From an uncultured Bacilli bacterium (GTDB taxonomy: Bacteria; Bacillota_I; Bacilli_A; RF39; UBA660): 64,000 bases of DNA. The translations under genes and the position numbers were made by a program. Position 1 is the first letter of the stretch. Every line of letters starts with the position of its first letter. The notes beneath the pieces are model-generated. The model ran no database searches. It was not told where the DNA came from and was given only the letters and a program-made list of their open reading frames with translations. The stretch lies in the NCBI GenBank assembly GCA_934130375.1, contig CAKOXW010000001.1, positions 328,067 through 392,066 on the forward strand. Direction: 5' to 3'. Positions 24,570 through 46,378 of this stretch are shown in pieces.

Positions 24570-24583
24570 TATTGCACCCCCTT

Positions 24584-26023: not shown

Positions 26024-26041
26024 ATTGCCTCCTTTGAATAG

Positions 26042-26084: not shown

Positions 26085-26173
26085 GCAACAACAAGATTAC
26101 AGCATGTAAAAAGAAAGCCTTTAAATTCATATTTCTTACAATTTTCTAATTCCACACTTAATCCCTTATTCAT
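26072..26173 (-). CDS. Leader peptide (33 aa) with its stop codon inside the terminator stem
   Basis: RBS GAGAGG, ATG, then MNKGLSVELENCKKYEFKGFLFTCCNLVVAIGI*. It is conserved in frame and register with the copy 2 leader ORF (M-KGL..E..CCN..IG-stop). A TTGACA-17-TAAATT promoter is upstream at about 26203-26231. Confidence 0.5.
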   Translation of the reverse strand: MNKGLSVELENCKKYEFKGFLFTCCNLVVAIGI

Positions 26174-26361
26174 ACAAAAACCTCTCTAATAAAATTAAGT
26201 CTAATTTATCATTTTTATACTTGTATGTCAACACATTTTTATTATTTTTTTACATAAAAATTCACTTGCAAATATATGTATTAAAACCATCTGTTTTACA
26301 AAATACTGTTATAAGAAAATTAGAATTATCTAAATAGTTTTATTCACTAGAAAAGCCTTCA

Positions 26362-26895
26362 TTATTTATCAAATTCTTCTTTTGCAAGTTTAATAATATT
26401 TTTTATAAATTCGTCTTTACCCTGTGTATATAATTTTCTTTCATTTGCATATTTGTTTGCCAAAGACACTTTTAAATCATTATATTCTTTTATATAATCA
26501 GGATGACTTAATAAATATTTCTTAAAATATAATTGATTAAAATAGGTATCACTATTCGTAGTAGTAAAATGTATATAATGACTTCTAGCATTATCAGGTC
26601 CTTTAGCAAAGAATATTCTGCCTATTACTCCTTGCTCTTTCCTATTTTCATAACTATATGGTTTTAATAGTTCTTCAATACAAGGTATCTCATTTAAAGA
26701 TTTAATAACTATTAAAATATCAATTATTGGTTTTGCTTTTAAACCAGGTATAGAAGTACTTCCAACATGGTGTATTTCTATTATTTTATCTTTAAGTACA
26801 CTTTTTAATAAGTTTTCTTCTTTTTTATATTCATTTTCCCAGTTTGGATTATAATCTTCTAATTTAACAATTCCTCTTTGTAAAGCCATAATCAT
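26362..26895 (-). CDS. GrpB family protein (nucleotidyltransferase-fold)
   Basis: HVGSTSIPGLKAKPIIDI motif typical of GrpB/DUF. Confidence 0.65.
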   Translation of the reverse strand: MIMALQRGIVKLEDYNPNWENEYKKEENLLKSVLKDKIIEIHHVGSTSIPGLKAKPIIDILIVIKSLNEIPCIEELLKPYSYENRKEQGVIGRIFFAKGPDNARSHYIHFTTTNSDTYFNQLYFKKYLLSHPDYIKEYNDLKVSLANKYANERKLYTQGKDEFIKNIIKLAKEEFDK

Positions 26896-27273
26896 CCTCC
26901 ATTTTAATATTCTAATTTATTTATTATTTTTTCATCTTTTGAATTAGCAAACAATCACAACACATGACATTGATTACAATATTCTTATTATCAACTATAA
27001 ACTCAATACTAGATATTTTTTAACAATATCATATAATTTGCAAGACAACAGAATATTTTTTATTACAGATGCTTTTATTTGGCTTATTGAGTGCCTTCCA
27101 TCAACATTATAATTAAAATGAATGTATAAATTTATGAACAGTTCATCTTTTATGCTGGGCAAACATCTTATTTTATCCCTAATCTTATTTAAGTATTTAT
27201 CTATAAAATTATAATCATTTAACTTTTGTTTTCCTATTTAATTGTACCTTTTAAACGATTTTATCATAACAAA

Positions 27274-28545
27274 TTATTTCCTTTTAACCTTATTTTTAAC
27301 CTCTGCATAATTTATAATCGGCAACAAAACTCTACTTAATTTTTCGCACATGTCTGCCTCATATACTTTTTCCTTACAAAAATCAGTTACTTGTATAGTT
27401 TTGATATTAGCACTTTTTGAAGATATTATTCCTCTTTTTGAATCTTCAAAAGCAATACAATTATCGCTCAAAACATTTAATGAGTTGAGCGCCATTTCAT
27501 ATGCATCAGGCGCAGGCTTAAGTCTTTCTACATCTTCTCTTGATACAATAACATCAAAAAGCGTTTCAAGTTTCAATTTATTTAATAACAAATCTATAAA
27601 CTTTCTTCTACTTGTACTTACAAGAGCCAAATTTAAACCCTTATTTTTTAGTTGTTTTAACAATTCAAAATTTATAGTCACTTCATTTTCATCTAATAAC
27701 TCTATAAACTTTTGCTCATACTTTAAATAAACTTTTTGCATAATCAATTCATCAGACACATCATAACCAATTATTTTATCTTCTTTTAATTTTTTTATTA
27801 AATTTGCATTTTGCTTTAATTCATTTTCCTCATATTCTTTATAAGTGATTAGATAATCATAATCAGTTTGTATTACTTCTCTAAAACTTTCAAAAAATTT
27901 TTTTTCACTATTTATTAATGTGCCATCCAAATCAAATAAAATAGTAGTTAATTTTTGTGGAGGCATAGCATTTGTAAAAGTTTTATATGCTGAAAAATCA
28001 CAATAAGGTGAATTTGCATTTTGAAAGTTCAGACTTTTAAATTTTAAAACAAATTCTTTTAACTTATCTTGTAAATAATCAACACTCAAATCATCTTTAC
28101 AATATAATAATTCATATTTAACAAATGTTCCAATGCCATCTACTGTATCAACCATTACATTATATTCAAAATCACCATCATTTTTAGAATATATTACTCT
28201 TGTTTTGTTTACAATGGAATAGCTTAAATAACCCAAAGAAAACAACAAATCACTAATACTTTCGTAATTAGAAATATCTACATTAATACTATTCACTGTC
28301 TTTCCATGATTATTTAAAAAATCCCTAGAAGCTCCTTTGAACGCAACTTCTAGATGTTTATTATCTGTAATACGCATCCTTAAACAAGACCTATTCTTTA
28401 TAAAATTGCCATTAATGTCCACAAAATATTCATCTATCTCAAATTCTTCTTTTACTTTTTTAAGTCCACATTTATTAATAGTACTTAATAATTCATTATA
28501 ACTATCACAATAAAATTTTTCTTCATTTTCAATTTTTTTACTCAT
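27274..28545 (-). CDS. CYTH (triphosphate tunnel metalloenzyme) domain fused to a HAD-superfamily hydrolase
   Basis: N-terminal E-x-E-x-K-F CYTH-like start and LRMRI. C-terminal HAD motif I LFDLDGTL, motif II VSTS, and a Lys/Asp pair. Confidence 0.55.
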   Translation of the reverse strand: MSKKIENEEKFYCDSYNELLSTINKCGLKKVKEEFEIDEYFVDINGNFIKNRSCLRMRITDNKHLEVAFKGASRDFLNNHGKTVNSINVDISNYESISDLLFSLGYLSYSIVNKTRVIYSKNDGDFEYNVMVDTVDGIGTFVKYELLYCKDDLSVDYLQDKLKEFVLKFKSLNFQNANSPYCDFSAYKTFTNAMPPQKLTTILFDLDGTLINSEKKFFESFREVIQTDYDYLITYKEYEENELKQNANLIKKLKEDKIIGYDVSDELIMQKVYLKYEQKFIELLDENEVTINFELLKQLKNKGLNLALVSTSRRKFIDLLLNKLKLETLFDVIVSREDVERLKPAPDAYEMALNSLNVLSDNCIAFEDSKRGIISSKSANIKTIQVTDFCKEKVYEADMCEKLSRVLLPIINYAEVKNKVKRK

Positions 28546-28607
28546 ATAAACCTCTTAATTTAATCTTCTATATTTCAAATATTGATTTAAAACTAATCTA
28601 AAATACA

Positions 28608-29657
28608 TTAGATATTGTTTTTTATAATCAAAAGAATACTATTAATTTCTTTTAAATCTTTGTTATTTATAATTATTGATTTTTTTAAATCAACTTTATT
28701 TTTCTTAATTACTTGATTTAGTGATTCATCATCATTATATATAATATTATTTATCTTAATATTCATTTTTCCAAAAAAATGAGTAAAGAATACTTTATTT
28801 GTTTTTGTTATAAACAATTTATTTTGAGGAAGTTTATCAAGTAATTGCATCGCCACCAATAATTCTTTTGAATCAAATATTACATTGTTTAAATAGTCAT
28901 CAATATAGGACATTACAATTGGACATAACTCATCATTTTTTCTGAATAAACCCCATTTAATAGTTTTCTTATAATCATTACTAAATTTTTCCTTATATTT
29001 TTTATAAAAATCCTTTTCATATTTAAAAAGAAACTCATCTAAACAAATATATATATTCTCTATCTTTTCTTTAGGTTTAATCTTTTTAAATTTGTAATCA
29101 GCAACAACATCTCTATATGGTCTTGTTTCTTCTTTTAAATTAAATTCAGAAAAAGAATTTACAAATTTTCTTAATGCAATGTTTAATTCTTCTTTTTTTG
29201 ATTCTTCTTGTTCGGAAATAATTTCAAATTCAATAAAACCGCCTATATTTGGTAATGTATCAATCATTATGCTATACCTATATTTTTCATCAGTTTTAAA
29301 GAAAGTATATCTTTCTTTTTCAACTTTGCAGTATGAATAAAATCCTAATGAAGTAAATAAACTAACAAAGTTGTCATATTCATTTATATCTGCTGATATA
29401 TTATTTTCTAATTTACAATATTGACCCAAAAGTGATGAAGATTTCCCCTTGAAAGTTATTTCCATATCTTTATTATTAGTCTTACGAATTCTAAGACATG
29501 TCCTGTTTTCAATAAATTCACTATCAATATCTGTAAAATATTCATCATTTTCAATTTTAATAGGTAATTCTATAAACTTCATATTTTTTATTTTTTCAAT
29601 TATCTTTTTGGGGTTAAAATAATAATATTTTTGTTCAGTTTCTACTTTTATTTTCAT
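28608..29657 (-). CDS. CYTH-domain protein, paralogue of the adjacent gene, with a divergent C-terminal domain
   Basis: The N-terminus aligns with 27274..28545 (..ENDEYFTDIDSEFIENRTCLRIR..). The C-terminal 170 aa are unassigned. Confidence 0.45.
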   Translation of the reverse strand: MKIKVETEQKYYYFNPKKIIEKIKNMKFIELPIKIENDEYFTDIDSEFIENRTCLRIRKTNNKDMEITFKGKSSSLLGQYCKLENNISADINEYDNFVSLFTSLGFYSYCKVEKERYTFFKTDEKYRYSIMIDTLPNIGGFIEFEIISEQEESKKEELNIALRKFVNSFSEFNLKEETRPYRDVVADYKFKKIKPKEKIENIYICLDEFLFKYEKDFYKKYKEKFSNDYKKTIKWGLFRKNDELCPIVMSYIDDYLNNVIFDSKELLVAMQLLDKLPQNKLFITKTNKVFFTHFFGKMNIKINNIIYNDDESLNQVIKKNKVDLKKSIIINNKDLKEINSILLIIKNNI

Positions 29658-29658
29658 A

Positions 29659-30708
29659 TTATTTATCCTTCCTTATTTTAGCAATCATATAAGTTCCTAA
29701 AATATTAGTAAACTTATAATAATCAACGCTATGATTATTAAAATTATGTTCAATAATTTTTTTGAATTGAGATTCATTTAAAAAACAACTACCAGCATCT
29801 TTTAAAAACTTAGTATATAACCACTTATTCAAAAAATTAGGTAATCCCCCAGCTTCCCTTGGATTACATATTTCTACTATTAAAACTTCATACTTAGAAA
29901 TTTTATTTAATAATAATAGCATATTGTTTATTGCATTAACATCATTCATATGATGTAGTGTATTTTTACAAAAAGCAACATCATAACTACAATCTTTAAT
30001 ATTATTAAAGTTTGCATCATCATTAGTATATACAACATTTTCATTCGTTTTTTCTTCCATGTACTTTATGCAAATGTCATTACCCACAATAAGTTCATAA
30101 TTTTTATTTAAAGCAATATCAAATATATCTTTGTTATCACCGCAAGATATATCAATAATTGATTTTTTTAACGGTAGAAGTTTTGATATTAATTCATTAA
30201 ACTCTTTTTTTCTTCGTTTTTTATAAGTAAGAAGATATTTTTTTATAAATTTTTCATGAAACTTATACCTTCCAATATATTTTTGACTAGTTTGTATCTC
30301 TTTTGAAACACTACTTGATAAGTAATACATTTCAAAATGTTTTTTGTGATAATCTACAAGTTTTTTATATTTAGAAGGAATTTTTTTTATGTCAAATCTT
30401 TTCAGTTTTGTTGTCAAATTATTTACAACCCTAATTGCTATAACAAGCGTTGAACCACAAAAACAAACAGGGTAGTAATTTATTATATCTATTTTATATT
30501 TTTTACTTACTCTTTTGATTAAATTTAAAATATCTTTTTGATTAACATAATCAATAAATCTGTTTTCACTTAAATAATAATAATACTTATCATCATACAC
30601 TAAAAGTATAATGTCTTTCTGAGAAATGTTGAGATTAATTTTTTTTAAATCATAGTGTTCTTTATAAAAATCATATATATTATTTTTCATATTCAATTTC
30701 CTCATCAA
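29659..30708 (-). CDS. Class I SAM-dependent methyltransferase with an N-terminal unknown domain
   Basis: Motif I IDISCGDN... and post-I acidic ..VGNDIC. Motif IV region AFCKNTLHHM. Confidence 0.55.
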   Translation of the reverse strand: MMRKLNMKNNIYDFYKEHYDLKKINLNISQKDIILLVYDDKYYYYLSENRFIDYVNQKDILNLIKRVSKKYKIDIINYYPVCFCGSTLVIAIRVVNNLTTKLKRFDIKKIPSKYKKLVDYHKKHFEMYYLSSSVSKEIQTSQKYIGRYKFHEKFIKKYLLTYKKRRKKEFNELISKLLPLKKSIIDISCGDNKDIFDIALNKNYELIVGNDICIKYMEEKTNENVVYTNDDANFNNIKDCSYDVAFCKNTLHHMNDVNAINNMLLLLNKISKYEVLIVEICNPREAGGLPNFLNKWLYTKFLKDAGSCFLNESQFKKIIEHNFNNHSVDYYKFTNILGTYMIAKIRKDK

Positions 30709-31567
30709 TAAACATTTGAGCAGTTTTTGTAAGATTATTATCTATTTTAACAATATTTATTTCCATTTTTGGAAACATAAAATCAATATCAACTTTCTCA
30801 ATAATACCTGCTTTAACTAAATAGTCAATTGCCGGTTCAACAACATAACCAATTCCAAGGTTTCTTCTAACAGAATCAATAATTAAGTCCTCTGTTCCAA
30901 ATTCAAGTACAGGAACAATATCTAAACTTTGCTCATCAAATATCCTATTCAAGTTTTTTCTCAAAGAACTTCTTGCAATTGGAAGAATAATATTTTCGTT
31001 TTCAAGGTCATTAATTGTTTTAATGATTGCATCGTTTCTTGTAGATTTTATAAAGCATGTCTTTAAAGCACATATTGGAGTTATAGATATATTATTGTAT
31101 ATTGTATCTATTGGTGCTGCATCTATAATAAAATCGACTTTTCTACTAACCAATTGCTCAATCAATTGGTTAGTTGACATATCAATTAATTCAATTTTAA
31201 TTTTAGGATGTTTTAATCTAAAGTCATCAATTTTACTCATCAAATAATTTCTTACTATATGTGACTGAACTCCAATAACTAGTGTACCTTGTTCAACATC
31301 ATTTATAGCTATTAAAGCACGCTCGCAAGTTTCAAGTAAATCTTTTGTTTCTCTTAAACAATTATATAAAATTTCACCAGATGGTGTCAAAGATATTCCC
31401 TTATTCGCTCTATAAAAAAGTGCTACATTTAATGTTTCTTCTAATTTCGACATACTCTTACTTATTGCTGGTTGTGACATATATAATTTATTTGATGCTT
31501 CAAGAAAACTATTTGATGTCGCAACTTCTAAAAACATTTTTAAAGAATTTAAATTTATTTCGTTCAT
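30680..31567 (-). CDS. LysR family transcriptional regulator
   Basis: N-terminal HTH LKMFLEVATSNSFLEASNKLYMSQPAISKSMSKLE. Overlaps the methyltransferase gene by 29 nt. Preceded by a consensus promoter (TTGACA at plus 31610-31615 complement, 17 bp spacer, TATAAT at 31587-31592 complement). Confidence 0.8.
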   Translation of the reverse strand: MNEINLNSLKMFLEVATSNSFLEASNKLYMSQPAISKSMSKLEETLNVALFYRANKGISLTPSGEILYNCLRETKDLLETCERALIAINDVEQGTLVIGVQSHIVRNYLMSKIDDFRLKHPKIKIELIDMSTNQLIEQLVSRKVDFIIDAAPIDTIYNNISITPICALKTCFIKSTRNDAIIKTINDLENENIILPIARSSLRKNLNRIFDEQSLDIVPVLEFGTEDLIIDSVRRNLGIGYVVEPAIDYLVKAGIIEKVDIDFMFPKMEINIVKIDNNLTKTAQMFIDEEIEYEK

Positions 31568-31660
31568 ATCAAATCACCTTAAAATTATTATAATTTCAAT
31601 TTGATATAATGTCAATTGTCGTTTTTTTATATTTGGTATAACTTTAAGTAATACTAAAAA

Positions 31661-31682
31661 TAGAATAGCAATTGCTATTCTA
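31661..31682 (-). terminator. 22-bp perfect palindrome TAGAATAGCAATTGCTATTCTA followed by a U-run; terminator of the NUDIX gene and/or LysR-type operator
   Basis: Perfect inverted repeat overlapping the stop of 31680..32165. Minus-strand UUUUUAGU follows. About 95 bp upstream of the lysR start. Confidence 0.45.
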
Positions 31683-32165
31683 TAAGTCATTTTCAATAAT
31701 ATGCTCATATGTCTTTTTTACATTTGTTAATTTGTTTTTCAAAAAATCAGGTTTAATTGAAGATTTTTTTATATCTTTTTTATCAATCCATTTGTATATT
31801 ATATTTTTTCCTTCTTCTATTCCATTAAATTCATCATCTTTCATCAATTTAGAATTATCAGGAATGTTTACTAAATAACCCAAAATATATTGATGTTGAA
31901 CCTTTCCAGCAAATTCAAAAAAATATTCAGTAAACCATAATGGTCTTTCAACCACTGCATTTTTTTCACCTGTTTCCTCTTCAAGCTCCCTTAAAACCAC
32001 TTCTTCGCCAGTTTCTAATGTTGCAATTGCGCCACCAGGTAAAGCCCAGTTTTCATCACCTTTTCTTTTTTGAAATAGTATTTTGTTGTTTTTAATTATA
32101 ACGCCAACAGCTCTACAACTAAATTTAACATTTCCTATCATTAATCTGATATCATCTTTTTCCAT
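31680..32165 (-). CDS. NUDIX hydrolase
   Basis: Nudix box GGAIATLETGEEVVLRELEEETG. Confidence 0.75.
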   Translation of the reverse strand: MEKDDIRLMIGNVKFSCRAVGVIIKNNKILFQKRKGDENWALPGGAIATLETGEEVVLRELEEETGEKNAVVERPLWFTEYFFEFAGKVQHQYILGYLVNIPDNSKLMKDDEFNGIEEGKNIIYKWIDKKDIKKSSIKPDFLKNKLTNVKKTYEHIIENDL

Positions 32166-32195
32166 ATTTTCCTCCTATTTTGATTATATCATATA

Positions 32196-32927
32196 TTATG
32201 AAATAATACATTGTAAGTATTTTTTAACACTATCTGTATTATTATCACCAATTATAATTGTTGCATTTCGTTTCAACTCTTCACAAGAGTTTCCAACAGC
32301 AACTTTATTGCCTGATACTGCAATAAATAAGGGTATATCATTGGCATCGTTACCAAAAGCCATCGTATTCTTTGCATCAATATTTAACAATTTCATTAAA
32401 TATACTGCAGCTGTTCCTTTATTAGCATCTTTGGGCAATATACTAAACCAATAATATCCATTTTCGTATGCATTGTCTCTTTGATACTTAATTTCACATA
32501 AACCTTTTATTTCAGCTCTTAAAACGTTTAATTTTTCATTACTACCCTTTATCATGCATTGCTTAACATTTTTAATAAAACAAATATAGTTTTCTTTAGT
32601 TATTTCTATCTCTTTATCTTCAATCGCTGCAATTAATGACAAATCATTTGCCAGCGCTAATTCATAAATTTTTAAAATTACATTTGAATCTAAAGTTAGA
32701 TTATATAACACTTTATTTTCATAGTTATCATATAACTCTGTACCATATGAAGAAATGAAATATCTAAATCCAAGTTCATCACATATTTTCTTGACTTCAC
32801 TTCGAGCTCTACCTGTTGTTAAGATAATATTTTTAAATTTTTTTAATGTCTTTTTTGCTGTTTCAGAAATTTCCCCAGTATCACGTGCAATAGTACCATC
32901 TATATCAACAAATAACAATTTTTCCAT
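32196..32927 (-). CDS. HAD-IIB Cof-type phosphatase
   Basis: DIDGTI motif I. GNDANDIPLF motif IV (Cof family). Confidence 0.75.
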   Translation of the reverse strand: MEKLLFVDIDGTIARDTGEISETAKKTLKKFKNIILTTGRARSEVKKICDELGFRYFISSYGTELYDNYENKVLYNLTLDSNVILKIYELALANDLSLIAAIEDKEIEITKENYICFIKNVKQCMIKGSNEKLNVLRAEIKGLCEIKYQRDNAYENGYYWFSILPKDANKGTAAVYLMKLLNIDAKNTMAFGNDANDIPLFIAVSGNKVAVGNSCEELKRNATIIIGDNNTDSVKKYLQCIIS

Positions 32928-32931
32928 AATT

Positions 32932-33630
32932 TCACTTCCTTTTAATTATTTGATATTGTTCCTCGTATTGTTCATATTCCATGTTTCCACATAAATATTC
33001 AACAAACAAATTGCTTTTTTTATTCTTTGATAAATCTAATTCAAAATCAAACAATTCTTTAACAATAATTTTAACTTTTAACAATATAATTTTTAGTTCT
33101 TCTTTTGGCATATAAGCAATTGATCTTAAAAAATAATTAGTAACATTTGCTATAGCTAAATTTTTATTTAAATAATAATTTTTATATTCATCACTATCAA
33201 GATTTTCCTGTGATAATTTACTTCTATATATTGAAGGTACTAGATCAACATAAACCAAATTACCATTTTTTATAATGAAATTTCTCATATTTAAATCTAA
33301 TGCAGCATCAGAAGATAAAGTTTTTCTATAAATAATAAGTAATTTTTTATAACAATTAAGTTTATCATCTATTAATACATCTTTTTTTTCCATATAAGAT
33401 GCAAGACTTTCTCCAGGAATAAATTCTTGAATTTCAATATTTTTGCCGAATATTTTTTTATCAAAATAGAGTCTTGCAACATCAATACCTAATTTTTTTA
33501 AATCATCATAATATGCTTTGTGATTACAATCAAAGCTTAGCAGTATATTTTTTGAATATAAATCTGCAACATTCTCTATCTTAAAGACTTTATCCTTGAT
33601 AACTATTATTTTATTAAAAGAACCCTTCAC
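32932..33630 (-). CDS. Atypical protein-kinase-like fold protein
   Basis: Catalytic-loop-like LDLNMRNFIIKNGNLVYVDLV (D..N...D). No clear Gly-rich loop. Confidence 0.35.
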   Translation of the reverse strand: MKGSFNKIIVIKDKVFKIENVADLYSKNILLSFDCNHKAYYDDLKKLGIDVARLYFDKKIFGKNIEIQEFIPGESLASYMEKKDVLIDDKLNCYKKLLIIYRKTLSSDAALDLNMRNFIIKNGNLVYVDLVPSIYRSKLSQENLDSDEYKNYYLNKNLAIANVTNYFLRSIAYMPKEELKIILLKVKIIVKELFDFELDLSKNKKSNLFVEYLCGNMEYEQYEEQYQIIKRK

Positions 33631-34463
33631 TATTTAAATTCCTTTTTCAGAATTTTTATACTTTCTTTACAAAAATCAGAATCAAGTTTGTTTCTCTCAT
33701 AGCACCAATTGACAGCAGTATAAGCATCAAATATATTATAAAAATTAATCCTTTCGAGAATAGAATTGTCTATATTCTTAACACTTTTGTAGCCTTCCAT
33801 AAATATATCAAATTTTTCTTCACTTAATATCCTTTTCATTTTTAAAAAGTCAAATGCAGGATCTCCACTTTTCATGCTTTCAAAATCAATCAAATACTCT
33901 TTATCGCCAAATATTATATTACCAACCCTAAAGTCAAGATGTAGTATAACATTTTCGTATGTTCCCTTGATTGACTCAATTGAATTAATGATAGAACCAT
34001 ATATTATTTCGTTATTATCCAATACATTTTCTAAATTTTTATTCGATTTTTCAGCATATTTATATAAATAATTAATCCATGATTCGTTATTTTTGTCCAA
34101 AGGTTTAATTGTATGTAGTTTGCCTAACAAAATACCAATCTTAAATATTTGTTCATCAGATAACAATTCAATATCACTATCTGAATATGATTTACCTTCA
34201 ATGAAAGTTATAACATTGTATGACTTATCATTGATACTACCTGAAAAAACCAATTTTGGAGCATTAACTTTATCAGATATATATTCAATATACATTGCCT
34301 CACCTTTTTGTTTTTCCTCATTATATAAAATTTTAAATATGTATTTTTGTGTTTTTGAATAAGCAATATATACATTCGAACTATAAGAGTTTGTCACTTT
34401 ATCTAATCTATATATTACAATATCATGTTTTTTAAATTCTTCAATTATATTTTTTTCAATCAT
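33630..34463 (-). CDS. Phosphotransferase family kinase (APH/choline-kinase/CotS-like)
   Basis: Brenner motif region LHLDFRVGNIIFGDKEYLIDFE. Confidence 0.65.
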   Translation of the reverse strand: MIEKNIIEEFKKHDIVIYRLDKVTNSYSSNVYIAYSKTQKYIFKILYNEEKQKGEAMYIEYISDKVNAPKLVFSGSINDKSYNVITFIEGKSYSDSDIELLSDEQIFKIGILLGKLHTIKPLDKNNESWINYLYKYAEKSNKNLENVLDNNEIIYGSIINSIESIKGTYENVILHLDFRVGNIIFGDKEYLIDFESMKSGDPAFDFLKMKRILSEEKFDIFMEGYKSVKNIDNSILERINFYNIFDAYTAVNWCYERNKLDSDFCKESIKILKKEFK

Positions 34464-34464
34464 G

Positions 34465-35751
34465 TTACCTCTCCGTTTTAGTATAAATTATCTCTTTTTT
34501 TAAAATTATATTTTTTAATTTTTTTATTGAATATTTAATAAATCCAATTGGTCTAAAGCAAAACCAAATAAATGATAGCAAAATTGCTAGCAATGATCTT
34601 AATTTATTATCATCATTAATTCCAATAACTTTTAATTCGATGTAAGAAGATAATGACCACAATACAGGAATTAATAATGTAACAATATTAAACAAAGTAA
34701 AGTTTTTTGTTAAGAAAATATAAATATAATAACTAAGAAACATATATGGGATTATACAAAATTCAAATATATTTGCAGTACCTGCTATAGCCATTTTCAA
34801 TTTATTAATATAATGTCTTTTTGCTTTTTTTATTTCACTTACATATGTCAAAATGCCCTTAAATATTAAAGTTGAACTACTAAAATATCCCTTTAAATCA
34901 TTTGGAATCAAAGAATAATTTGGAGTATATAAATATTCACATTTTTTACCATATATTGAATATCTGTATCCTAAAGTTAAATCATCAACAAATATTGGAA
35001 ACAAATCATATTGAATCAATGTACTCAATTTTAGATGCATGCAAGCTCCCATAAAATATTTTGGAACATTTAAATTTAATAAAGTACTTAACTGAAATTT
35101 AAATTTTTCAATAGCAAGAGACCTTACCATATGTTGTAGACTATAAATTGTCATTATAATGCTTTTATTAGTCATTTCCGAATAATTTTTTATTGCAAGA
35201 GGTATCTGTTGTACCATATCTGGCTTATTTTTATTTTGTACTACTTTATTGAGTTCATTAAAAGTATTTTTTTCTGGTCTCGAATCGAAATCAAATACAG
35301 AAATGTAAGTATTATCTAAATCTATATTCTTTGACTTCAATTGTAATATTGCATAATTCATTTGCGATGATTTATTACCCTCTGTTTTAGGGTAATGAAG
35401 ATGTAAAAATCTATTATCCTTTACCTTTTTTAAATACTCATTTACAACTTTATTAGTTGTTTCACTTTTTATGTTATTTTTTTTGAATTCATTTTCTTCT
35501 TTTTCAGTTGTAATAATTACATATTTTATATTTCCTTTGTATTTAATATTTTTAAACCAATCAATTGTTTCTTTAACAATTTTCTGTTCTTTTAAGGCAG
35601 GAAGCAAGACATAAATGTCGACATATTCTTTTACCTTGTATTTTTTTTGCTTTTTTATAATTATCTTATCAAGCAAAATAGTCATTAATAAAACAAATGG
35701 AGCAATCAGATAGATATATACAATTATTTTAAATGCTATCATATTGTGCAC
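34465..35751 (-). CDS. Membrane-anchored family 2 glycosyltransferase-like protein
   Basis: N-terminal TM helix. VLLPALKEQ, DxD (VFDFDSRP), VDDLTLGYR. Four or more C-terminal TM helices. Confidence 0.5.
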   Translation of the reverse strand: MHNMIAFKIIVYIYLIAPFVLLMTILLDKIIIKKQKKYKVKEYVDIYVLLPALKEQKIVKETIDWFKNIKYKGNIKYVIITTEKEENEFKKNNIKSETTNKVVNEYLKKVKDNRFLHLHYPKTEGNKSSQMNYAILQLKSKNIDLDNTYISVFDFDSRPEKNTFNELNKVVQNKNKPDMVQQIPLAIKNYSEMTNKSIIMTIYSLQHMVRSLAIEKFKFQLSTLLNLNVPKYFMGACMHLKLSTLIQYDLFPIFVDDLTLGYRYSIYGKKCEYLYTPNYSLIPNDLKGYFSSSTLIFKGILTYVSEIKKAKRHYINKLKMAIAGTANIFEFCIIPYMFLSYYIYIFLTKNFTLFNIVTLLIPVLWSLSSYIELKVIGINDDNKLRSLLAILLSFIWFCFRPIGFIKYSIKKLKNIILKKEIIYTKTER

Positions 35752-37360
35752 CCCCTAATTGTTTATTTAAAATTTTAATTCCTTGTATAAAAAACGCTAA
35801 TTGTCTTTCTGGATAATCACTATGAAGACTTATCATTGATATAAATAACAAACCCTCAATTAGTTCAATATCATCGATAGAGATACAATTTTTATTAATT
35901 ATGCTATCAAAAGCACTATAATTTGATGCTTGTTTAAAAAACTTAAGCTTAAATCCTTTTTCGTTTTCATCAACTGTAAATAGATCATTTATAATTTCAT
36001 CATATCTACCATGATAACAATGTCTCAACTTAGCAATATCGTACCTATAATCTCCATATATTGTATCAATGACGAAATTACCCCTAGGATCAATGAATTT
36101 AAATATCATATTTCTTGGCGAAAATAATATATTAGAAAAAGCTGGATCTCCATGAACAATTGAAACATAATTAATAGAATCATTGCATATTCTAATTATT
36201 CTCTTTTCAAGTTTTTCTAAGCATTTATTTATTCCTAAATGTTTTTTTCCATCAATTATAACTTCATCAGATAATACAATATCTTTTCTATCCCATTTAT
36301 CAATTCTAGATTTAGTTTTTTTAATAAGCATTTCCTGCATATAGTCTCTAAATGATAGGGAAATTATTTTGTTTTTACTATATATATTCATCAAGTTTTC
36401 AAATAATTTTTCAAAAATATAATTTTTGTTATAATCCATCAATGGATAAAATGTAAAATATTCAGATAATGTTAAATAATCATAATATTCAATCCCATAT
36501 TCATTATCAAATTTATTATTTTTATAAAATTTCGGAGTTATTTTTTCAAAGTCTGTATTAGCAACTTCTTTATACCAATTCATTTCAGAAGAAATTTTAT
36601 TCCAAGTACTCTTTTTATGTAGTACTGATAGATTATCAAGAAATAAAGAATTAAAGTTTCGACAATTAAAATTCTTTTTGTTTGTCTCCATATAATTTTC
36701 TAAAGTTCCTATATCTTCCCAGCTAGTTGTCTTTTCAAGATAAACATCTTCTTTTTCCATATACTTATAAAAATATGATGACAATTGATATTCAGCTCCA
36801 TCTTTATCTTCTTCTAATATTTTCTTTAATAATTTGTAATTTTTAAAATAGTATAACCCAATAGCTGCATAAGAAGCATTAGTTTTTTGAGGTTTGTCCT
36901 CTAAATTAATTATTTTATCGTTACTGTCAGTACTTATCATACAATACATATTTGCCTTTTCATTCGCAATTTTTTGGCCTACAATAAAACTTTTAGAATA
37001 ATCAGTCGGATATTCGCATAATGTATCGCCCAATAGTAGAATTGTTTTTTTCTTTATTAAATCTTTTGTCATTCTTAATGCAATACCAGGCCCAGAAAAG
37101 TCTCTTTGAACAACATATTTAAAATCAATTTTAATGTTATTAAATGAATTTTTCATAAATTGTTCTATTAAATACCTATTTTCATCATTTACAACAAATG
37201 TTATATCTGTTAATCCATCTTTAATTAATGGAATAAGCATGTTGTATATTGATGGCATTTGTTTAACACTTAACAATGCTTTGGGCATATTTAGTGTTAA
37301 AGGATACAATCTTGTTCCGTGACCTGCCATTAACACAATTAATTGTTTATCTTTATACAT
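35729..37360 (-). CDS. Bifunctional sugar/phospho-alcohol nucleotidyltransferase (LicC-like) fused to a C-terminal APH-fold kinase (LicA/choline-kinase-like)
   Basis: N-terminal LMAGHGTRLYPLTLNMPKALL (NTP_transferase G-x-G-T-R-L). C-terminal VHGDPAFSNILF...FIDPRG (HGD...N...D kinase motifs). 543 aa. Confidence 0.65.
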   Translation of the reverse strand: MYKDKQLIVLMAGHGTRLYPLTLNMPKALLSVKQMPSIYNMLIPLIKDGLTDITFVVNDENRYLIEQFMKNSFNNIKIDFKYVVQRDFSGPGIALRMTKDLIKKKTILLLGDTLCEYPTDYSKSFIVGQKIANEKANMYCMISTDSNDKIINLEDKPQKTNASYAAIGLYYFKNYKLLKKILEEDKDGAEYQLSSYFYKYMEKEDVYLEKTTSWEDIGTLENYMETNKKNFNCRNFNSLFLDNLSVLHKKSTWNKISSEMNWYKEVANTDFEKITPKFYKNNKFDNEYGIEYYDYLTLSEYFTFYPLMDYNKNYIFEKLFENLMNIYSKNKIISLSFRDYMQEMLIKKTKSRIDKWDRKDIVLSDEVIIDGKKHLGINKCLEKLEKRIIRICNDSINYVSIVHGDPAFSNILFSPRNMIFKFIDPRGNFVIDTIYGDYRYDIAKLRHCYHGRYDEIINDLFTVDENEKGFKLKFFKQASNYSAFDSIINKNCISIDDIELIEGLLFISMISLHSDYPERQLAFFIQGIKILNKQLGGAQYDSI

Positions 37361-37364
37361 ATTA

Positions 37365-38180
37365 TCACCTCATTATCTTATTTATCAATTTTTTACTTTT
37401 TTCATTTTCCACACCAATTAAATCACCAGGTTTATGAAAATCACTTCCACATGTAGTTAATAAATCATATTTTTTTGCTAAAAATTCGTAATACTCGTTT
37501 TTCATTTTAGAATTCTTACTTAAATTTGTTATTTCAATTCCCATTAATCCTATTTCCTTCAAATGAGATATAAAACAATCAAGTTCTTCATCAGACAATT
37601 TCAAAGTACAAGGATGCGCTAGCACAGGTATTCCACCACTTTTTAATATTACATTTATAGTATCTTCTAATGGAAATTTTGCAGTTGGTTCATAATACTT
37701 TGACATTTTTCCAGTATATAAATCACCAGCCTCGCTCATGCTTGAGGCATACCCTGCTTCTACAAGCATTCGTCTTATTAATCCCTTACTCATATTGCAA
37801 TTTTTATATTTATCTAAATTTAAATTAAATTTGTAATCATTTTTTAAATGTTCAAGTAATCTTTTGCATATAAATAAATTTTCTAATTGCACTTTTTTCA
37901 AGTATGTTTTAACCATATCAATATCATTTATTCCATATCCTAAAATATGCATGTGATTATATTTCTCTATACTAAACTCTATTCCAGGTAATAAAATCGT
38001 TTTACACTTATTATCAAAGTTGTTTAATGTTTGATTCTCGGTTATAAAATCATGATCTGTAATACACAAGCATTCTAATCCTAATTCATTTGATTTTTCA
38101 ACTAATTTAGAAGGTTCAAAAACACCATCTGAATTAGTGGAATGTACGTGTAAATCGTAATACATTTGATTTTTCTCCAC
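37365..38180 (-). CDS. PHP-domain phosphoesterase (TrpH/YciV-like)
   Basis: DLHVHSTNSDG...ITDHD PHP motifs. The true start is possibly MYYDLH at 38165. Confidence 0.7.
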   Translation of the reverse strand: MEKNQMYYDLHVHSTNSDGVFEPSKLVEKSNELGLECLCITDHDFITENQTLNNFDNKCKTILLPGIEFSIEKYNHMHILGYGINDIDMVKTYLKKVQLENLFICKRLLEHLKNDYKFNLNLDKYKNCNMSKGLIRRMLVEAGYASSMSEAGDLYTGKMSKYYEPTAKFPLEDTINVILKSGGIPVLAHPCTLKLSDEELDCFISHLKEIGLMGIEITNLSKNSKMKNEYYEFLAKKYDLLTTCGSDFHKPGDLIGVENEKSKKLINKIMR

Positions 38181-39480
38181 TTAATTTCTTTAAATGTAAG
38201 TCTAATTCGTCAAAAGTTTCTCCAGATTGTTCAACTCTTTTAACATTACATCTATTTAAAAAATCAGGATTAGTATAAGTTACATTAAATAGTTCATTTA
38301 AAAAACGTTTGTTTTCAATAACACAATTATCAGTCATAATATTATCATAACCTAAGTATGATACAATATCTGGTTCATCATTTATTGTAATTGACTTTGC
38401 ATTCGCATTGTATTTTGGAAGAAGTATTGTATTCAATTTTACAATACTATGAACACAAACATTAAACTTCTTGCTAACATCATCATTATTTAGATAAACT
38501 TTTTCTTTATCACCATCTCTTGCTATTTTACAGTCTGAAATATCAAACACTTTTTCTGCATCATCTAATATTATTCCCATTGAAAAAGGAATACCAACAA
38601 CTACCACATGATCATCTTCTTGTTTTAATGCAAGTCTATCATTTGCTACATAATCATATCCACGAGATAAAAGATTTAGTAATGTAACTGTTTTACCTGC
38701 ACGTTTATTTCCACTAATTACAAAACCTTCACCATTTCTGCTTGCACATGCACCATGAAGTATTACATAACCTTTCTGCTGCAATGTTTTTGTTAATATT
38801 GAAGTAAACATTCTTTTAGCAAAATCCTTATCTTTTTCATCATACCTAGACATATAAATATTTATATTATCTTCAATTTTGTCAACATAACTAAACTCAA
38901 TCTGATTGCTTTCTTTTATTGGATAGTCTGTTTTTCTTTTAGACCCAACAATATAATTTATTGCAATATCCTCTTTGTCATTTGTTTCTTCATAGTAAGA
39001 CCCAAAAAGTTTAATAAGATTAATTACCACATTTGGATTATTTGACCTTACTTTTACATTAGTGTCATTCACTTTGAAAGTATGCTCTACAATGTTATTT
39101 ATATTTCTATCGTCATTACATATTTTGTTTAATTCAAAAAAGTCATGTTCAAGAAATTCCTTAGGTCTTATACTTCTATCATCAATGTAAAAGCCCTCTT
39201 TGCCTGGCCATTGTTTTCCACACACAATCTCATCAAATGGTATATTCCATTCTTTTAACCATAATTCTAATTCAGGTTTTGTAAATTTATTTATCAAATC
39301 CAAATTACAATTATAAGTATTCATGTTTCTAGATGTAAACAATACAATTTTAAATCCTTTCTCTTGATATTCTTTTAATTTTTCAATCATTTTTTTATAA
39401 GGAATCAAATCCTTATAATTTTCATTTGTCTTTTTGATTGGACACAATGTCCCATCAATATCGACAATGATACTTTTCAT
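38134..39480 (-). CDS. HAD-like hydrolase fused to an HprK/P-like P-loop kinase domain
   Basis: N-terminal VDIDGTL with FTSRN motif II. C-terminal ILHGACASRNGEGFVISGNKRAGKT resembles the HPr kinase C-domain P-loop. Start chosen at MKSIIVDIDG (ATG 39480, RBS GGAGGTGA with a 7-nt spacer). The ORF track extends to a TTG at 39522. Confidence 0.55.
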   Translation of the reverse strand: MKSIIVDIDGTLCPIKKTNENYKDLIPYKKMIEKLKEYQEKGFKIVLFTSRNMNTYNCNLDLINKFTKPELELWLKEWNIPFDEIVCGKQWPGKEGFYIDDRSIRPKEFLEHDFFELNKICNDDRNINNIVEHTFKVNDTNVKVRSNNPNVVINLIKLFGSYYEETNDKEDIAINYIVGSKRKTDYPIKESNQIEFSYVDKIEDNINIYMSRYDEKDKDFAKRMFTSILTKTLQQKGYVILHGACASRNGEGFVISGNKRAGKTVTLLNLLSRGYDYVANDRLALKQEDDHVVVVGIPFSMGIILDDAEKVFDISDCKIARDGDKEKVYLNNDDVSKKFNVCVHSIVKLNTILLPKYNANAKSITINDEPDIVSYLGYDNIMTDNCVIENKRFLNELFNVTYTNPDFLNRCNVKRVEQSGETFDELDLHLKKLSGEKSNVLRFTRTFH

Positions 39481-39886
39481 CAAATCACCTCCACACAATT
39501 CAATCATAAAGGCAATTTTCAAAATAGTAAACTAACAATTTTTTATAATGATTTTTACTATTTTTTTTAATAATTTAAATTTATATTATGTAAATTATTT
39601 ATTATTAATTTTATTTTTTTTAAATAATAGAAAGTAGTTTTTGTATAATCTCAATTTATATAAGTATATCTTTTTTATTGAACAAAAAACGATTTTTTCA
39701 TAATAAAAAGCAATTTTTTACGTTTATCTTTATGATTAATTGAAGTTATATAACTTAAAGATTTTTTTAATATAATTTAAACACATAAATATATAGATAT
39801 AATTCATATTAAAAAATTATAATATTTAAAACTTTATACATTAAAAACAATATTTTTGCATAAAAAAAAGTACAACAAGTGCACTT

Positions 39887-40426
39887 TTAATAATTATTTG
39901 CTTTTCTCTCAAAGAAACTTTTTGGGTGTTTACATATTGGACATACTTCTGGTGCTTTCTTACCAATTACAACATGTCCACAATTTCTACAAATCCAAAT
40001 AGTATCACCATCATTTGAGAATACTAAATCATTTTCTATATTACTAATTAACTTTCTATATCTTTCTTCATGTTCTTTTTCTATTTTAGCAACACCTTCA
40101 AATAGATAAGCAATTCTATCAAAACCTTCTTCTTTTGCAGTCTTTGCAAATTCAGCATACATATCAGTCCATTCGTATGCTTCTCCATTAGCTGCTTCTT
40201 CTAAGTTGTTTAATGTATCTGGTATTTCACCACCACATAATTCCTTAAACCATAACTTAGCATGTTCCTTTTCATTATTTGCAGTTTCTTCAAATATTGC
40301 TGCAATTTGCTCATAACCATCTTTTCTTGCTTTTGATGCGAAATAAGTATATTTATTTCTTGCTTGTGACTCACCCGCAAAAGCCGCTAATAAATTAGTC
40401 TCAGTTTTACTTCCTTTTAATTCCAT
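39887..40426 (-). CDS. rbr: Rubrerythrin
   Basis: Ferritin-like diiron E..H motifs plus C-terminal rubredoxin CRNCG...CPICKHP. Confidence 0.9.
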
Positions 40427-40485
40427 AATTTATACCTCCTTAATAATTATTTTATCATATTTATTATGTATATGTGAATAATTTT

Positions 40486-41514
40486 TTACTTAATGCCTAA
40501 TTCTTTATTTTTTCTAATAATTTCCTTAGCCTTCTTAATATTTTCTCTAGTATAACCTATTAAAGAATTGTTGCATTTATCAGTAAGAGTATTAATAATC
40601 TCTTCATATTCCATCTTTGATTTCTTTGTAAATGCATCATTTAACGCAATATGATTTTGCTTACCATATTTATCTACAACCATTATTGATTTTATAGTTT
40701 TTATTCCATATACTCTACTATTAAATTCATAAATCCATATTACATCTTTATAATCTATATATGAAAACTTCATACCAAAATTTATTATATAATTCTTAGT
40801 TAAACATACACATGAATTATCATAGTAAAATGCTTCTTCATCATTCATTTCTTGTTCTAATTTACTTATTATATTACTATCTAATTTTTTAATTCCTGAT
40901 TTATAATTTATCTTTCTAACTATAGTTATAATAAATAATATAATACCAAAGATTAAAGCACCAAAACCAATTATAAAGAATATTAACCCTCCACCTGATA
41001 AATCTTTAGTTGTATCTAAATATACTGTACCAAAATAATTTTCAAAATCTGCAATAGTTAATTTTTCTTCATCACTAAGTTCAAACATTTCATTATAAGT
41101 ATCTATTGCTAGTTCTTTAACATCTTTAGATACTAGTGCAGTAATTCCTTCTACTTTAATAAAATCATCTTTCTTTTCTTCATTATATATCTCTTTATAC
41201 TTATCTATAGTCATATACATTATATATAAATACTCACCATCAGTTGTAAAATAATAAGCATCAGTCGTATCATCATATACAGCAAATTTAAATAAATTTC
41301 TCTTTATATTTATTTTAGAATACAATTCATCCTTAGCGGTAATACTTTTATCTTGTATAATTGTCTTTAAATCTTTTTCATTTTTCTTATCTTTTTCATC
41401 AAACAAAAAACTAACATAAAAAGATATAAATGCCGCAACAATAATAAATACACTTATCAATATTTCTTTAGACATTTTTCTTTCAGCATTAATTATTTTT
41501 TCATTTGTAAACAT
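40486..41514 (-). CDS. Hypothetical membrane protein (two TM helices)
   Basis: ORF with TM helices near residues 20-40 and 180-200. No motif. Confidence 0.4.
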   Translation of the reverse strand: MFTNEKIINAERKMSKEILISVFIIVAAFISFYVSFLFDEKDKKNEKDLKTIIQDKSITAKDELYSKINIKRNLFKFAVYDDTTDAYYFTTDGEYLYIMYMTIDKYKEIYNEEKKDDFIKVEGITALVSKDVKELAIDTYNEMFELSDEEKLTIADFENYFGTVYLDTTKDLSGGGLIFFIIGFGALIFGIILFIITIVRKINYKSGIKKLDSNIISKLEQEMNDEEAFYYDNSCVCLTKNYIINFGMKFSYIDYKDVIWIYEFNSRVYGIKTIKSIMVVDKYGKQNHIALNDAFTKKSKMEYEEIINTLTDKCNNSLIGYTRENIKKAKEIIRKNKELGIK

Positions 41515-45222: not shown

Positions 45223-46340
45223 TTATTCACAAGCATTAACAACAACATTACTTGGAAAACTATAATTACCATCTTCCATAATTGGATTACCTCTAAACGC
45301 ATTACAACCAAGCGTTATTGGTGTATCAGGAAATGTAATTGAAGTTATTTGATTATTTTCAAAAGCATTGATACCTATTTCGGTAATACTTGATGGTATT
45401 GTAATATTTGTTAATTCATTACCAAAAAACGCATTTCTATATATACTTGTTACTGTATTAGGTATCACTACCGAAGTTATTCCTAAACCCGAAATCGATA
45501 TGGAAAGTGGTTTAACCACGTAATTATTAGAATTATAACTTAATAAACTTACTTTATAATCATTATTATAAGCAGTAAGTGTTGGTATAATACCTCCTGT
45601 TGTAAATGCATTATCTCCAATAGTAACAACTGTCTTACCATCTACTTGTGATGGTATTACTACATCAGTTCCTCCAGCAATATTATAACCTGTTATTTTT
45701 ATACCTTCTGTTGCATCTACTTTTAATCCTATAGTTTCATAACTATAATCCTCTAGAGTTGAAACTTCAAGTGCTAAATCGTTAACAGTAAGAGTCTTAT
45801 TATTTATTGTTAGTGAACCCGTTGTACAAAAAGTATTGGCTTGTGCTTCAGTACAACCAACTGGATTTTGCATAAACGTTTTACATTTGTCTATATCTAC
45901 AATTTCAGCACTATGAATTATTGGTGTATCTTCATAACTAAAATACTTAGTAGCAGTTTCAGCAATTTCTTTCTTAGCACTTGCTTTGGCACTATCCTTA
46001 GTGCCATCTACTACTTGTAAACCTTCAAACTTACCTTTACCTACTATTGATACTTTTGCATTTCCCTTATCATCAAAAGTAATATTACAACTTTCATAAT
46101 CATTTGAATTTATCTTAGCAACATCACTACATTTTATTGTACTACTACCATCTAATACTTGATTTTCAGTATATTTCTTTTCAGCCTGACTTGCTATTAA
46201 CTTTGCAGTTGTTTCTAATGATGCCTCCTTAGAATTTTTAATTACATCACTTATTTTTGGCATTGCAATAATTAGTATAACTGCCAAAATAACTATTACT
46301 GCTAATAATTCTACTAAAGTAAAACCCTTCTTTTTCTTCA
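45223..46340 (-). CDS. Type IV pilin-like protein fused to BspA-type leucine-rich repeats (copy A)
   Basis: Start at MKKKKG/FTLVELLAVIVILAVILIIAMP (ATG 46340, RBS AGGAGGAG). C-terminal LRRs (TSVVIPNTVTSI..., ITIPSSITEIG..., ITSITFPDTPITLG). The ORF track's upstream start is unlikely. Confidence 0.7.
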
Positions 46341-46378
46341 TAATCTCCTCCTTATTATACAAGGTTATTATACTATAC

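Follow-up and report, generated by a model that had tools for sequence, protein, structure and literature searches.

We analysed a stretch of 64,000 nucleotides from an uncultured Bacilli bacterium (contig CAKOXW010000001.1, positions 328,067 to 392,066; called the window below) and describe here a minus-strand operon of eight co-directional genes, P1 to P8, that runs from position 39480 to position 31680. Its third gene encodes a fusion of an RmlA-like sugar-1-phosphate nucleotidyltransferase with a small-molecule kinase of the APH/choline-kinase fold, and its fourth gene encodes a membrane-embedded glycosyltransferase of family 2 (GT2). We propose that the operon activates a sugar to a nucleoside diphosphate sugar (NDP-sugar) and hands it to the synthase-like membrane GT2 for the formation of a surface glycan or glycolipid, a reading to which we assign a probability of roughly 0.55. 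The domain identities, the intact catalytic motifs, the operon structure and the synteny on which this proposal is built were observed directly. The features of the operon, with positions in the window, are as follows.

39481..39886, minus strand: leader/promoter region, AT-rich, 406 nt, between the rubrerythrin gene and P1
38134-39480, minus strand: P1, 448 amino acids (aa), two-domain protein
39106..39480, minus strand: P1 N-terminal domain (residues 1-125), putative EcbF/BcbF-type HAD-III phosphatase
38134..39078, minus strand: P1 C-terminal domain (residues about 135-448), HprK-related P-loop kinase-like
37365-38165, minus strand: P2, 266 aa, PHP phosphoesterase of the TrpH/YciV (RNase AM) / Cv1693 type
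35729-37360, minus strand: P3, 543 aa, nucleotidyltransferase-kinase fusion
36677..37360, minus strand: P3 N-terminal domain (residues 1-228), RmlA-like sugar-1-phosphate nucleotidyltransferase
35729..36676, minus strand: P3 C-terminal domain (residues 229-543), APH/choline-kinase-fold small-molecule kinase
34465-35742, minus strand: P4, 425 aa, membrane-embedded synthase-type GT2 glycosyltransferase
33630-34463, minus strand: P5, 277 aa, APH-family kinase
32932-33630, minus strand: P6, 232 aa, orphan minimal kinase-like protein (Bud32/RIO-like)
32196-32927, minus strand: P7, 243 aa, Cof-type HAD-IIB sugar-phosphate phosphatase, a variable member
31680-32165, minus strand: P8, 161 aa, NUDIX hydrolase, last gene of the operon
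31660..31683, minus strand: intrinsic-terminator-like hairpin, 10-bp stem and T-run, overlapping the NUDIX stop codon

The eight genes form one operon, since they share one leader, each is preceded by a ribosome-binding site (RBS), junctions overlap and a terminator lies 3' of the NUDIX gene. Gene starts were set by the RBSs and by independent gene calls on an identical metagenome contig, the sequence being present without change on a 389-kb contig of a Hadza gut metagenome. From P1 to P8, the gaps (+) and overlaps (-) are -32, +4, -14, +1, -1, +4 and +30 nt. P1 has the RBS GGAGGTG, 5 nt ahead of its ATG at 39480; P2, which overlaps P1 by 32 nt, has GTGGAG; and P8 has AGGAGG after the 30-nt gap, with no terminator between P7 and P8. 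The hairpin with its T-run lies at the NUDIX stop codon and is followed on its 3' side by a separate sigma-70-type promoter for a LysR gene (12/12 consensus; 31615-31587), so the unit comprises eight genes including the NUDIX gene. An initial annotation of this DNA had listed seven tightly packed minus-strand genes and a following NUDIX gene. Both the genes and the tight packing (junctions of -32 to +30 nt) were recovered at its coordinates, which are maximal open reading frames (ORFs) and not true starts; its bound of 5 nt on gaps and overlaps failed at P1/P2 (-32 nt) and P3/P4 (-14 nt).

The leader gave no match to Rfam families, which ruled out a riboswitch or other known RNA, and contains no credible small ORF. 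Promoter-like hexamers did not exceed chance frequency in the region scanned (27000-40600, leader included). The GC content of the window is about 25%, and nearly all of its genes are on the minus strand.

The N-terminal domain of P3 matched NTP_transferase [PF00483; 1e-27, 97.8 bits (cut-off 21.2)], and residues 8-226 aligned end to end with RmlA structures (E 1e-16 to 2.5e-17; 4ho0 at 2.5e-17). In a residue-level alignment with 4ho0 and 1lvw, the motifs GxGTRL, VQ, LGD, (E/D)KP, GLYYF and WxDxGT were conserved. Invariant among 30 family members were G13, R17, K27, Q85, D112, K156 and W214-D216-G218. We take the Gln of the RmlA VQ motif to be the residue that reads the uracil or thymine base; the conserved Gln of P3 aligns there, which makes UTP or dTTP the likely partner. 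P3 did not reach the cut-offs of the RmlA equivalog models (TIGR01208, 79.8 bits vs 320; TIGR01207, 75 vs 360), and its score with the MurU model NF045761 (49 bits, cut-off 250) indicates no MurU orthology. HddC-type matches were also found (NF049965, 7e-12; 5xhw, 2.5e-9). LicC (1jyk) covered only residues 7-68, at E 5e-6.

The C-terminal domain of P3 had no Pfam (Choline_kinase and APH included), NCBIfam or PDB sequence match. An AlphaFold2 model built from 41 family members (mean predicted local distance difference test, pLDDT, 91) has the APH/choline-kinase fold in this domain, and the leading Foldseek matches were methylthioribose kinase (2pu8; 1.5e-6), APH(2''), choline kinases and LicA. 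Methylthioribose kinase is a sugar C1 kinase. A total of 84 PDB structures matched at E <=1e-3; the 50 of them that were listed consist of APH-type kinases and of kinases for choline/ethanolamine, methylthioribose or macrolides. The highest TM-score was that of LicA [4r7b; 0.54/0.60, root-mean-square deviation (rmsd) 5.0]. Residues K249, E259, H403-G-D405, N410 and D424, which are invariant, make up a complete catalytic set.

P3 had been described as a LicC-like nucleotidyltransferase fused to a LicA-like kinase. The combination of a nucleotidyltransferase with an APH/choline-kinase-fold kinase stood, as did the implied phosphorylation followed by nucleotidylation, and membership in the LicC and LicA families did not. 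A sugar phosphate, which had been offered as a secondary option for the substrate class, is favoured by the RmlA-type transferase domain and by the glycan neighbourhoods described below; the substrate itself is, as had been stated, not readable from the sequence.

P4 overlaps P3 by 14 nt and is translationally coupled to it. It is the sole membrane protein of the operon, with four hydrophobic transmembrane segments (residues 1-31, 325-345, 348-368 and 381-403). Its match to Glyco_tranf_2_3 (4e-5) was just under the Pfam cut-off. With an AlphaFold2 model (pLDDT 92), the best Foldseek match was the Chlorella virus hyaluronan synthase 8sne (9e-11, TM 0.68), followed by BcsA (4p00; 2e-10), chitin synthase and PcManGT; GtrB and DPMS were also among the matches. 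The motif DFDS at 151-154 (DxD) and the catalytic acid D253/D254 are conserved. The membrane GT2 of the initial annotation was thus confirmed as a protein with four transmembrane helices and a synthase-like model.

The predicted pathway has the following steps. The APH-fold kinase half of P3 would phosphorylate a sugar at the anomeric C1, and the RmlA-like half would make an NDP-sugar from the sugar-1-phosphate and a nucleoside triphosphate, for which UTP or dTTP is probable. A co-encoded phosphatase (the EcbF-type HAD of P1, P7 or P2) would strip a distal phosphate, either ahead of the kinase, in the manner of MupP, or following it, in the manner of GmhB, which acts between HddA and HddC. P4 would consume the NDP-sugar at the inner membrane face and yield a surface glycan or a membrane-anchored glycoconjugate. 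P5, P6, the HprK-like kinase and the NUDIX hydrolase may act on the same phosphorylated sugar/nucleotide pool or on the product, in phosphorylation, proofreading or NDP-sugar turnover. The order of these steps, the sugar and the product are likewise predictions.

We compared the gene neighbourhoods of relatives (loci numbered L003 to L019), with synteny assembled from exact-protein look-ups; a single-sequence scan of genome contigs gave two loci only. Homologs of the fusion and of P4 occur almost exclusively in metagenome-assembled genomes (MAGs) of uncultured Bacilli and Clostridia from guts, rumen and sediment, with low-GC Bacilli MAGs of gut or rumen making up most of the carriers. Few of the homologs have a name, and those names are hypothetical protein, glycosyltransferase or sugar phosphate nucleotidyltransferase. 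A set of PHP, fusion, P4-type GT2, APH, P6, HprK-like and NUDIX genes recurred; it was complete in four of the sampled lineages and lacked a single member in three others. The loci with a P4-type GT2 beside the fusion are, in addition to the window, those below; identities refer to the fusion protein (P3).

L003: 77% identity, set complete
L004: 62% identity, an unrelated ORF in the HprK-like slot, NUDIX not found in the stretch examined
L009: 53% identity, set complete
L013: 52% identity, set complete
L014: 49% identity, set complete
L011: 43% identity, a sediment spore-former
L015: about 40% identity, a histidine phosphatase in place of the PHP gene, APH absent

Cluster order or content was kept in seven or more diverged lineages, with fusion identities from 77 to about 40%, and this recurrence indicates that the cluster is not due to chance. 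In L011, the APH and HprK-like genes had diverged beyond the reach of tblastn; phmmer together with a family profile recovered them. Two members of the cluster are variable, namely the EcbF-type HAD and the Cof phosphatase. In L004, the slot of the HprK-like gene (12481-13440) holds a 319-aa ORF that has no P-loop, Pfam match or HprK-like similarity and is, as far as its sequence tells, an unrelated replacement. The synteny comparison called for with the initial annotation has thereby been made, and neither our literature searches nor the source names carried by several hundred homologs revealed an orthologous cluster with an assigned pathway.

The fusion family adjoins glycan machinery of three kinds: the P4-type GT2, UgtP-like synthases and a Wzx/Wzy capsule locus. 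In a sister clade (L005, L007 and L012), the fusion is found with UgtP-like diglucosyl-diacylglycerol synthases, and the stop codon of a HAD gene overlaps the ATG of the fusion. Genetic code 4 was considered for L012 and rejected; an apparent in-frame stop there proved to be the true HAD stop overlapping the fusion start (ATGA). In L019, a classical Wzx/Wzy capsule locus of an organism of 45% GC, a P3 homolog of 545 aa overlaps a fusion of an EcbF-type HAD with a nucleotidyltransferase, the pair lying at 7364-10233. This P3 homolog lacks the N-terminal nucleotide-binding signature and retains the kinase half; together with the HAD-nucleotidyltransferase fusion, it looks like a division of labour after domain decay.

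The P4-type glycosyltransferase, in turn, has HprK-like and APH kinases beside it, and this holds for distant relatives too. L017 (57% GC) has, as separate genes, the glycosyltransferase, a nucleotidyltransferase, a stand-alone kinase resembling the C-terminal domain of P3, an APH, an HprK-like and a dTMP-kinase-like gene. The ensemble of GT2, multiple kinases, PHP and NUDIX genes spans gut Bacilli of 23% GC to an organism of 57% GC. Judging from these neighbourhoods, a precursor sub-module (the fusion) and a transfer sub-module (the P4-type glycosyltransferase) appear separable. Domain fusions tie further members to the cluster: HAD with HprK-like in the window, HprK-like with NUDIX in the proteins P0250 and P0256, and HAD with nucleotidyltransferase in P0255, P0259, P0261 and P0262. 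The fusion partners of the HprK-like domain, a HAD phosphatase and NUDIX, suggest that its substrate is a nucleotide or a sugar phosphate. Taken together, fusions and co-occurrence would place P2, P5, P6, P8 and the HprK-like domain in the same process as the fusion and the glycosyltransferase.

The HAD domain of P1 matched TIGR01689 over profile positions 1-124 of 126 [5e-38, 129.8 bits (cut-off 162)] and the structure 1xpj over residues 1-125 (1e-30), and the HAD motifs DIDGT (DxDGT type) and DD are present. This HAD scores on HAD-IIIA, the subfamily of GmhB; in L004 and L009 the EcbF-type HAD is a separate gene of 131-134 aa. The C-terminal domain matched Hpr_kinase_C (7e-6) and HprK_rel_B (1e-11) at residues about 249-312 only, and HprK structures at residues 241-305 (4e-5), the similarity being confined to about residues 241-312. 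The domain has a Walker A motif, GNKRAGKT, and after it NDR. Since the scores lie below the family cut-offs of PF07475 (26.1 bits vs 33.3, profile positions 8-62 of 171 only) and TIGR00679 (26 vs 240), the domain is, on its profile matches, HprK-related and not HprK. The proposed HAD-HprK-like fusion was accordingly confirmed in its HAD half, which is probably of the EcbF type, and limited in the other half to a partial, below-cut-off similarity. A stand-alone HprK-like gene of 303-393 aa is present in L009, L013, L014, L011, L015, L016 and L017.

P2 matched Pfam PHP (2e-8) and, over its full length, the structures 7ug9 (1.5e-22, residues 2-248) and 2yb1 (1.4e-13). It also matched the NCBIfam models of RNase RNM (5e-35) and 3',5'-nucleoside bisphosphate phosphatase (9e-35), with scores below both equivalog cut-offs (121 vs 375 and 120 vs 400). 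This bears out the PHP phosphoesterase of the initial annotation and places it in the TrpH/YciV family. No CpsB-type structure matched P2 at E 1e-3.

P5 is an APH-family kinase by its Pfam matches (APH, 4e-15; Fructosamin_kin, 5e-8), with invariant K44, E55, H175-x-D177, N182 and D193. The nearest match of its family profile was APH(2'') at 9e-13, then YihE, then the CotS-family protein YtaA (2q83) at 8e-5, and CotS-type NCBIfam models did not match. Hence the APH part of its earlier label as APH/CotS-like was upheld and the CotS part was not. P5 was found in 7/8 cluster variants and also beside the distant P4-like glycosyltransferases of L016 and L017. P6 had no Pfam match, and its family comprises just 26 representative clusters among 1.84 billion proteins. 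Residues D112, N117 (D-x4-N), D129 and P132 are invariant in this family, and K17 almost so (at least 90%); the family profile matched Bud32 (8unk) weakly (E 0.0027) over a region spanning the catalytic loop, and family members gave weak ABC1, RIO1 and Pkinase matches. A comparison with two APH-type family profiles by hhalign was not significant. The conserved motifs and the weak Bud32 match hint that P6 may be kinase-like, as had been supposed.

P7 matched Hydrolase_3 (8e-39), S6PP (5e-14) and TIGR00099 (1.5e-38), in agreement with its earlier naming as a Cof phosphatase, and is limited to the window, L003 and L004. P8 matched NUDIX (4e-14) and has an intact Nudix box; its orthologs lie within or adjoining the cluster in L003, L009, L011, L013, L014 and L015. 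The extra kinases and phosphatases that had been noted beside the fusion are therefore present.

Several characterised systems resemble the operon in part. In a documented sugar-recycling route of Pseudomonas, the phosphatase MupP, the kinase AmgK and the uridylyltransferase MurU lead to UDP-MurNAc (PMC5371409). There the HAD phosphatase takes the 6-phosphate off the sugar, the APH-family kinase places a phosphate on the anomeric carbon and the NTP_transferase-family enzyme forms the UDP-sugar. The window likewise co-encodes HAD phosphatases (P1 and P7), an APH-fold kinase and an NTP_transferase (both in P3), and the sister clade has a HAD gene that overlaps the fusion start. However, kinase and transferase are fused here and the transferase is nearer to RmlA than to MurU; the product would go to a GT2 synthase or a UgtP-like glycosyltransferase and not to peptidoglycan; and the phosphatase is an EcbF-type HAD-III or a Cof-type protein, not a phosphoglycolate-phosphatase-like one. 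No natural AmgK-MurU fusion, and no characterised fusion of an anomeric kinase with a nucleotidyltransferase tied to glycolipids, was found in the literature.

HddA, GmhB and HddC, a kinase, a HAD-III phosphatase and a nucleotidyltransferase, act as a unit in capsule loci to form GDP-D-glycero-alpha-D-manno-heptose. The same three activities are combined here, P3 matches HddC models and the P1 HAD scores on the GmhB subfamily; unlike in that system, the kinase is of the APH fold and not GHMP, there is no GmhA isomerase, and scores are far below the equivalog cut-offs. A relative of the EcbF/BcbF capsule phosphatases, fused to a nucleotidyltransferase, sits in the Wzx/Wzy capsule locus of L019; unrelated acronyms were all that the literature searched for bcbF/ecbF yielded. 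With HPr kinase/phosphorylase and the HprK-like kinases of lasso-peptide clusters, P1 has the P-loop core GxxGxGK(T/S) ... (N/D)DR in common, but about 65 residues align and there is no HPr, precursor peptide or lasso cyclase here. A literature search on HprK-like kinases gave only papers on RiPPs, peptides that are ribosomally synthesised and then modified post-translationally; a RiPP-like reading of the HprK-like kinase was rejected, as the leader offers no credible small ORF for a precursor peptide.

A single membrane GT2 beside its own nucleotide-sugar supply is also the arrangement of hasABC, of pneumococcal cps3 and of the glucan/galactan synthases of Mycoplasma. In Mycoplasma, membrane GT2s that carry 3-6 transmembrane helices produce synthase-dependent capsules (PMC11658790), and the four helices of P4 fall within that range. 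In contrast to these operons, P4 has no QxxRW motif, the fusion would supply the precursor instead of Pgm and GalU/HasC, and three further kinases, a PHP and a NUDIX protein are present that have no counterpart there.

Several observations weigh against the proposed NDP-sugar pathway. In processive synthases, QxxRW grips the acceptor end of the growing polymer. P4 has LIFKG in its place; the corresponding helix reads (S/Q)xx(L/R)I(F/Y)(K/R)G in the family, with Trp in 0/37 members, and because the motif is absent P4 may not polymerise. In its fold, the P3 kinase domain is equally near to a sugar kinase, to choline kinases and to APH(2''). With three additional kinases, a PHP protein of the TrpH type and a NUDIX protein, the operon has more than known NDP-sugar routes need. 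The flanks of the operon are rich in nucleotide house-cleaning enzymes (Ham1, nucleotide pyrophosphatase, CYTH and RelA/SpoT), which leaves room for a nucleotide-centred function. Finally, L016 has a distant P4 relative with HprK-like, dTMP-kinase-like and APH genes and no nucleotidyltransferase nearby, so that the kinases may serve the glycosyltransferase rather than precursor supply.

Since P4 combines a synthase architecture with the lack of QxxRW, we cannot decide between a secreted or capsular polymer and a short glycolipid-type product. That the operon makes a glycolipid and no polymer at all, with a non-processive P4 adding one or a few sugars to diacylglycerol or polyprenyl phosphate, is possible, though we hold it to be unlikely. 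The product could then be, for example, a lipoteichoic-acid-type anchor, with the kinases and phosphatases adding or trimming head-group phosphate. The LIFKG sequence, the coupling of the sister-clade fusion to UgtP-like diglucosyl-diacylglycerol synthases, and the presence of PcManGT, GtrB and DPMS among the structural matches of P4 agree with this, but the top matches by a wide margin are channel-bearing polymer synthases (TM 0.68 vs about 0.3 for GtrB), and in Mycoplasma it is transmembrane helices flanking the GT2 domain that separate synthases from glycolipid GT2s (PMC11658790). We consider quite unlikely a phosphate-centred glycan pathway of a new kind, with a nucleotide-phosphorylated donor or with a glycan or glycolipid to which dedicated kinases would add several phosphates. 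The phosphorylated-donor form could follow a logic like that of 3'-phosphoadenosine-5'-phosphosulfate (PAPS) or 3'-phospho-CDP-amidate, and would account for the bisphosphate-phosphatase-type PHP, the P-loop kinase and the P-loop kinase-NUDIX fusion.

CpsB-type PHP phosphatases and P-loop bacterial tyrosine (BY) kinases (CpsD) regulate capsule assembly in Gram-positive bacteria. By analogy, the HprK-like, Bud32-like and APH-like proteins might be protein kinases and the PHP and HAD proteins protein phosphatases that together switch the synthase, leaving only P3 and P4 as biosynthetic. HprK and Bud32/RIO relatives are indeed protein kinases or ATPases, and the kinases follow the P4-type glycosyltransferase even where, as in L016, no nucleotidyltransferase is near. 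Such a circuit is nevertheless very unlikely in our view, given that P2 is a full-length relative of the nucleotide phosphoesterases TrpH/YciV and Cv1693 with no CpsB-type match, that the HAD-nucleotidyltransferase and HprK-like-NUDIX fusions point to small-molecule nucleotide or sugar-phosphate chemistry, and that CpsC/CpsD-type proteins are absent. The initial annotation had favoured a CDP-linked phospho-head-group pathway. In such a pathway, a small alcohol or amine (choline, ethanolamine or glycerol) would be phosphorylated and converted to a CDP-linked compound, and the phospho-head group would pass to a lipid or glycan. In the Treponema LicCA fusion, the nucleotidyltransferase domain presumably precedes the kinase domain, as it does in P3. 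A LicCA fusion is mentioned in the literature (PMC8590670), and P3 resembles that of Treponema denticola in its domain order and its phosphorylate-then-nucleotidylate logic, while LicA has the top TM-score for the P3 kinase domain. The transferase domain, however, is RmlA-like over its full length, with LicC aligning to the N-terminal 60 residues only, and the kinase domain carries no choline-kinase signature. Neither in the operon nor in the 64-kb window did Pfam searches (48/58 ORFs >=120 aa) find LicB, LicD or a CDP-alcohol phosphotransferase. The transferase coupled to the fusion is a GT2, and relatives stand beside UgtP-like glycosyltransferases and a Wzx/Wzy locus. A glycosyltransferase, the only transferase present, needs an NDP-sugar, so head-group transfer from a CDP-linked compound is not supported and appears highly improbable. 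The spore-coat or exosporium glycan with CotS-type kinases that had been named as an alternative deserves hardly any credence. The P5 profile matches YtaA weakly and the cluster of L011 adjoins GerA and spore-permease genes, yet P5 is far closer to APH(2''), the 64-kb window yielded no sporulation gene, and the carriers are mostly low-GC gut or rumen Bacilli MAGs.

Immediately downstream of the operon and under its own consensus promoter (27274-31567) lie a LysR gene, a gene for a methyltransferase-like protein and genes for two paralogous CYTH (triphosphate tunnel) proteins, which share 33% identity over 242 aa; a HAD_2 phosphatase is fused to the second of these. L003 keeps this block along with the operon and encodes the HAD in an ORF of its own. 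Also beside the operon (22148-26895) are genes for Ham1 ITPase, a type I phosphodiesterase/nucleotide pyrophosphatase, a Y_phosphatase3 protein, RelA/SpoT and GrpB. The window encodes two RelA/SpoT paralogs (24584-26023 and 55533-57035; 479 and 500 aa) with HD_4, RelA_SpoT and TGS domains, and in both of them no domain was detected C-terminal to TGS. The cluster copy of L013 adjoins six or more NUDIX genes, an HD_4 protein gene, a pyrophosphatase gene and GrpB.

Further away, three proteins (9207-10985, 45223-46380 and 46787-48058) have a type IV pilin-like N-terminal methylation motif and large adhesin-type domains, namely Listeria-Bacteroides repeats, a glycine-rich domain and BspA-type LRR_5. 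A further PHP-domain gene (293 aa) and an ORF of 319 aa without a Pfam match lie at 48640-50468 and overlap each other; the two may be another PHP-containing pair. A Fic/DOC-family gene (19232-20200) is the sole sizeable plus-strand gene, and the GC skew flattens at 18001-20000. Anti-phage defence was considered and dismissed, as PADLOC gave only generic NUDIX and PHP noise.

Surface-glycan or glycolipid operons with their own nucleotide-sugar supply are well known as a general kind. New here are the natural fusion of an APH-fold kinase with an RmlA-like transferase, the family of synthase-like GT2s without QxxRW, and the conserved accessory set of multiple kinases, PHP and NUDIX proteins. Nucleotide-sugar activators that work in two steps within one protein are wanted for chemoenzymatic synthesis, and the fusion, if our reading is correct, would be a natural one. 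As it recurs beside three different glycan systems, it would also be a useful marker for finding glycan loci. Uncultured low-GC Bacilli that are abundant in human and ruminant guts would then have a route to a surface glycan or glycolipid that current annotation overlooks, and the deeply conserved association of three or four kinases and a NUDIX protein with a synthase-like GT2 marks a testable gap in bacterial glycobiology.

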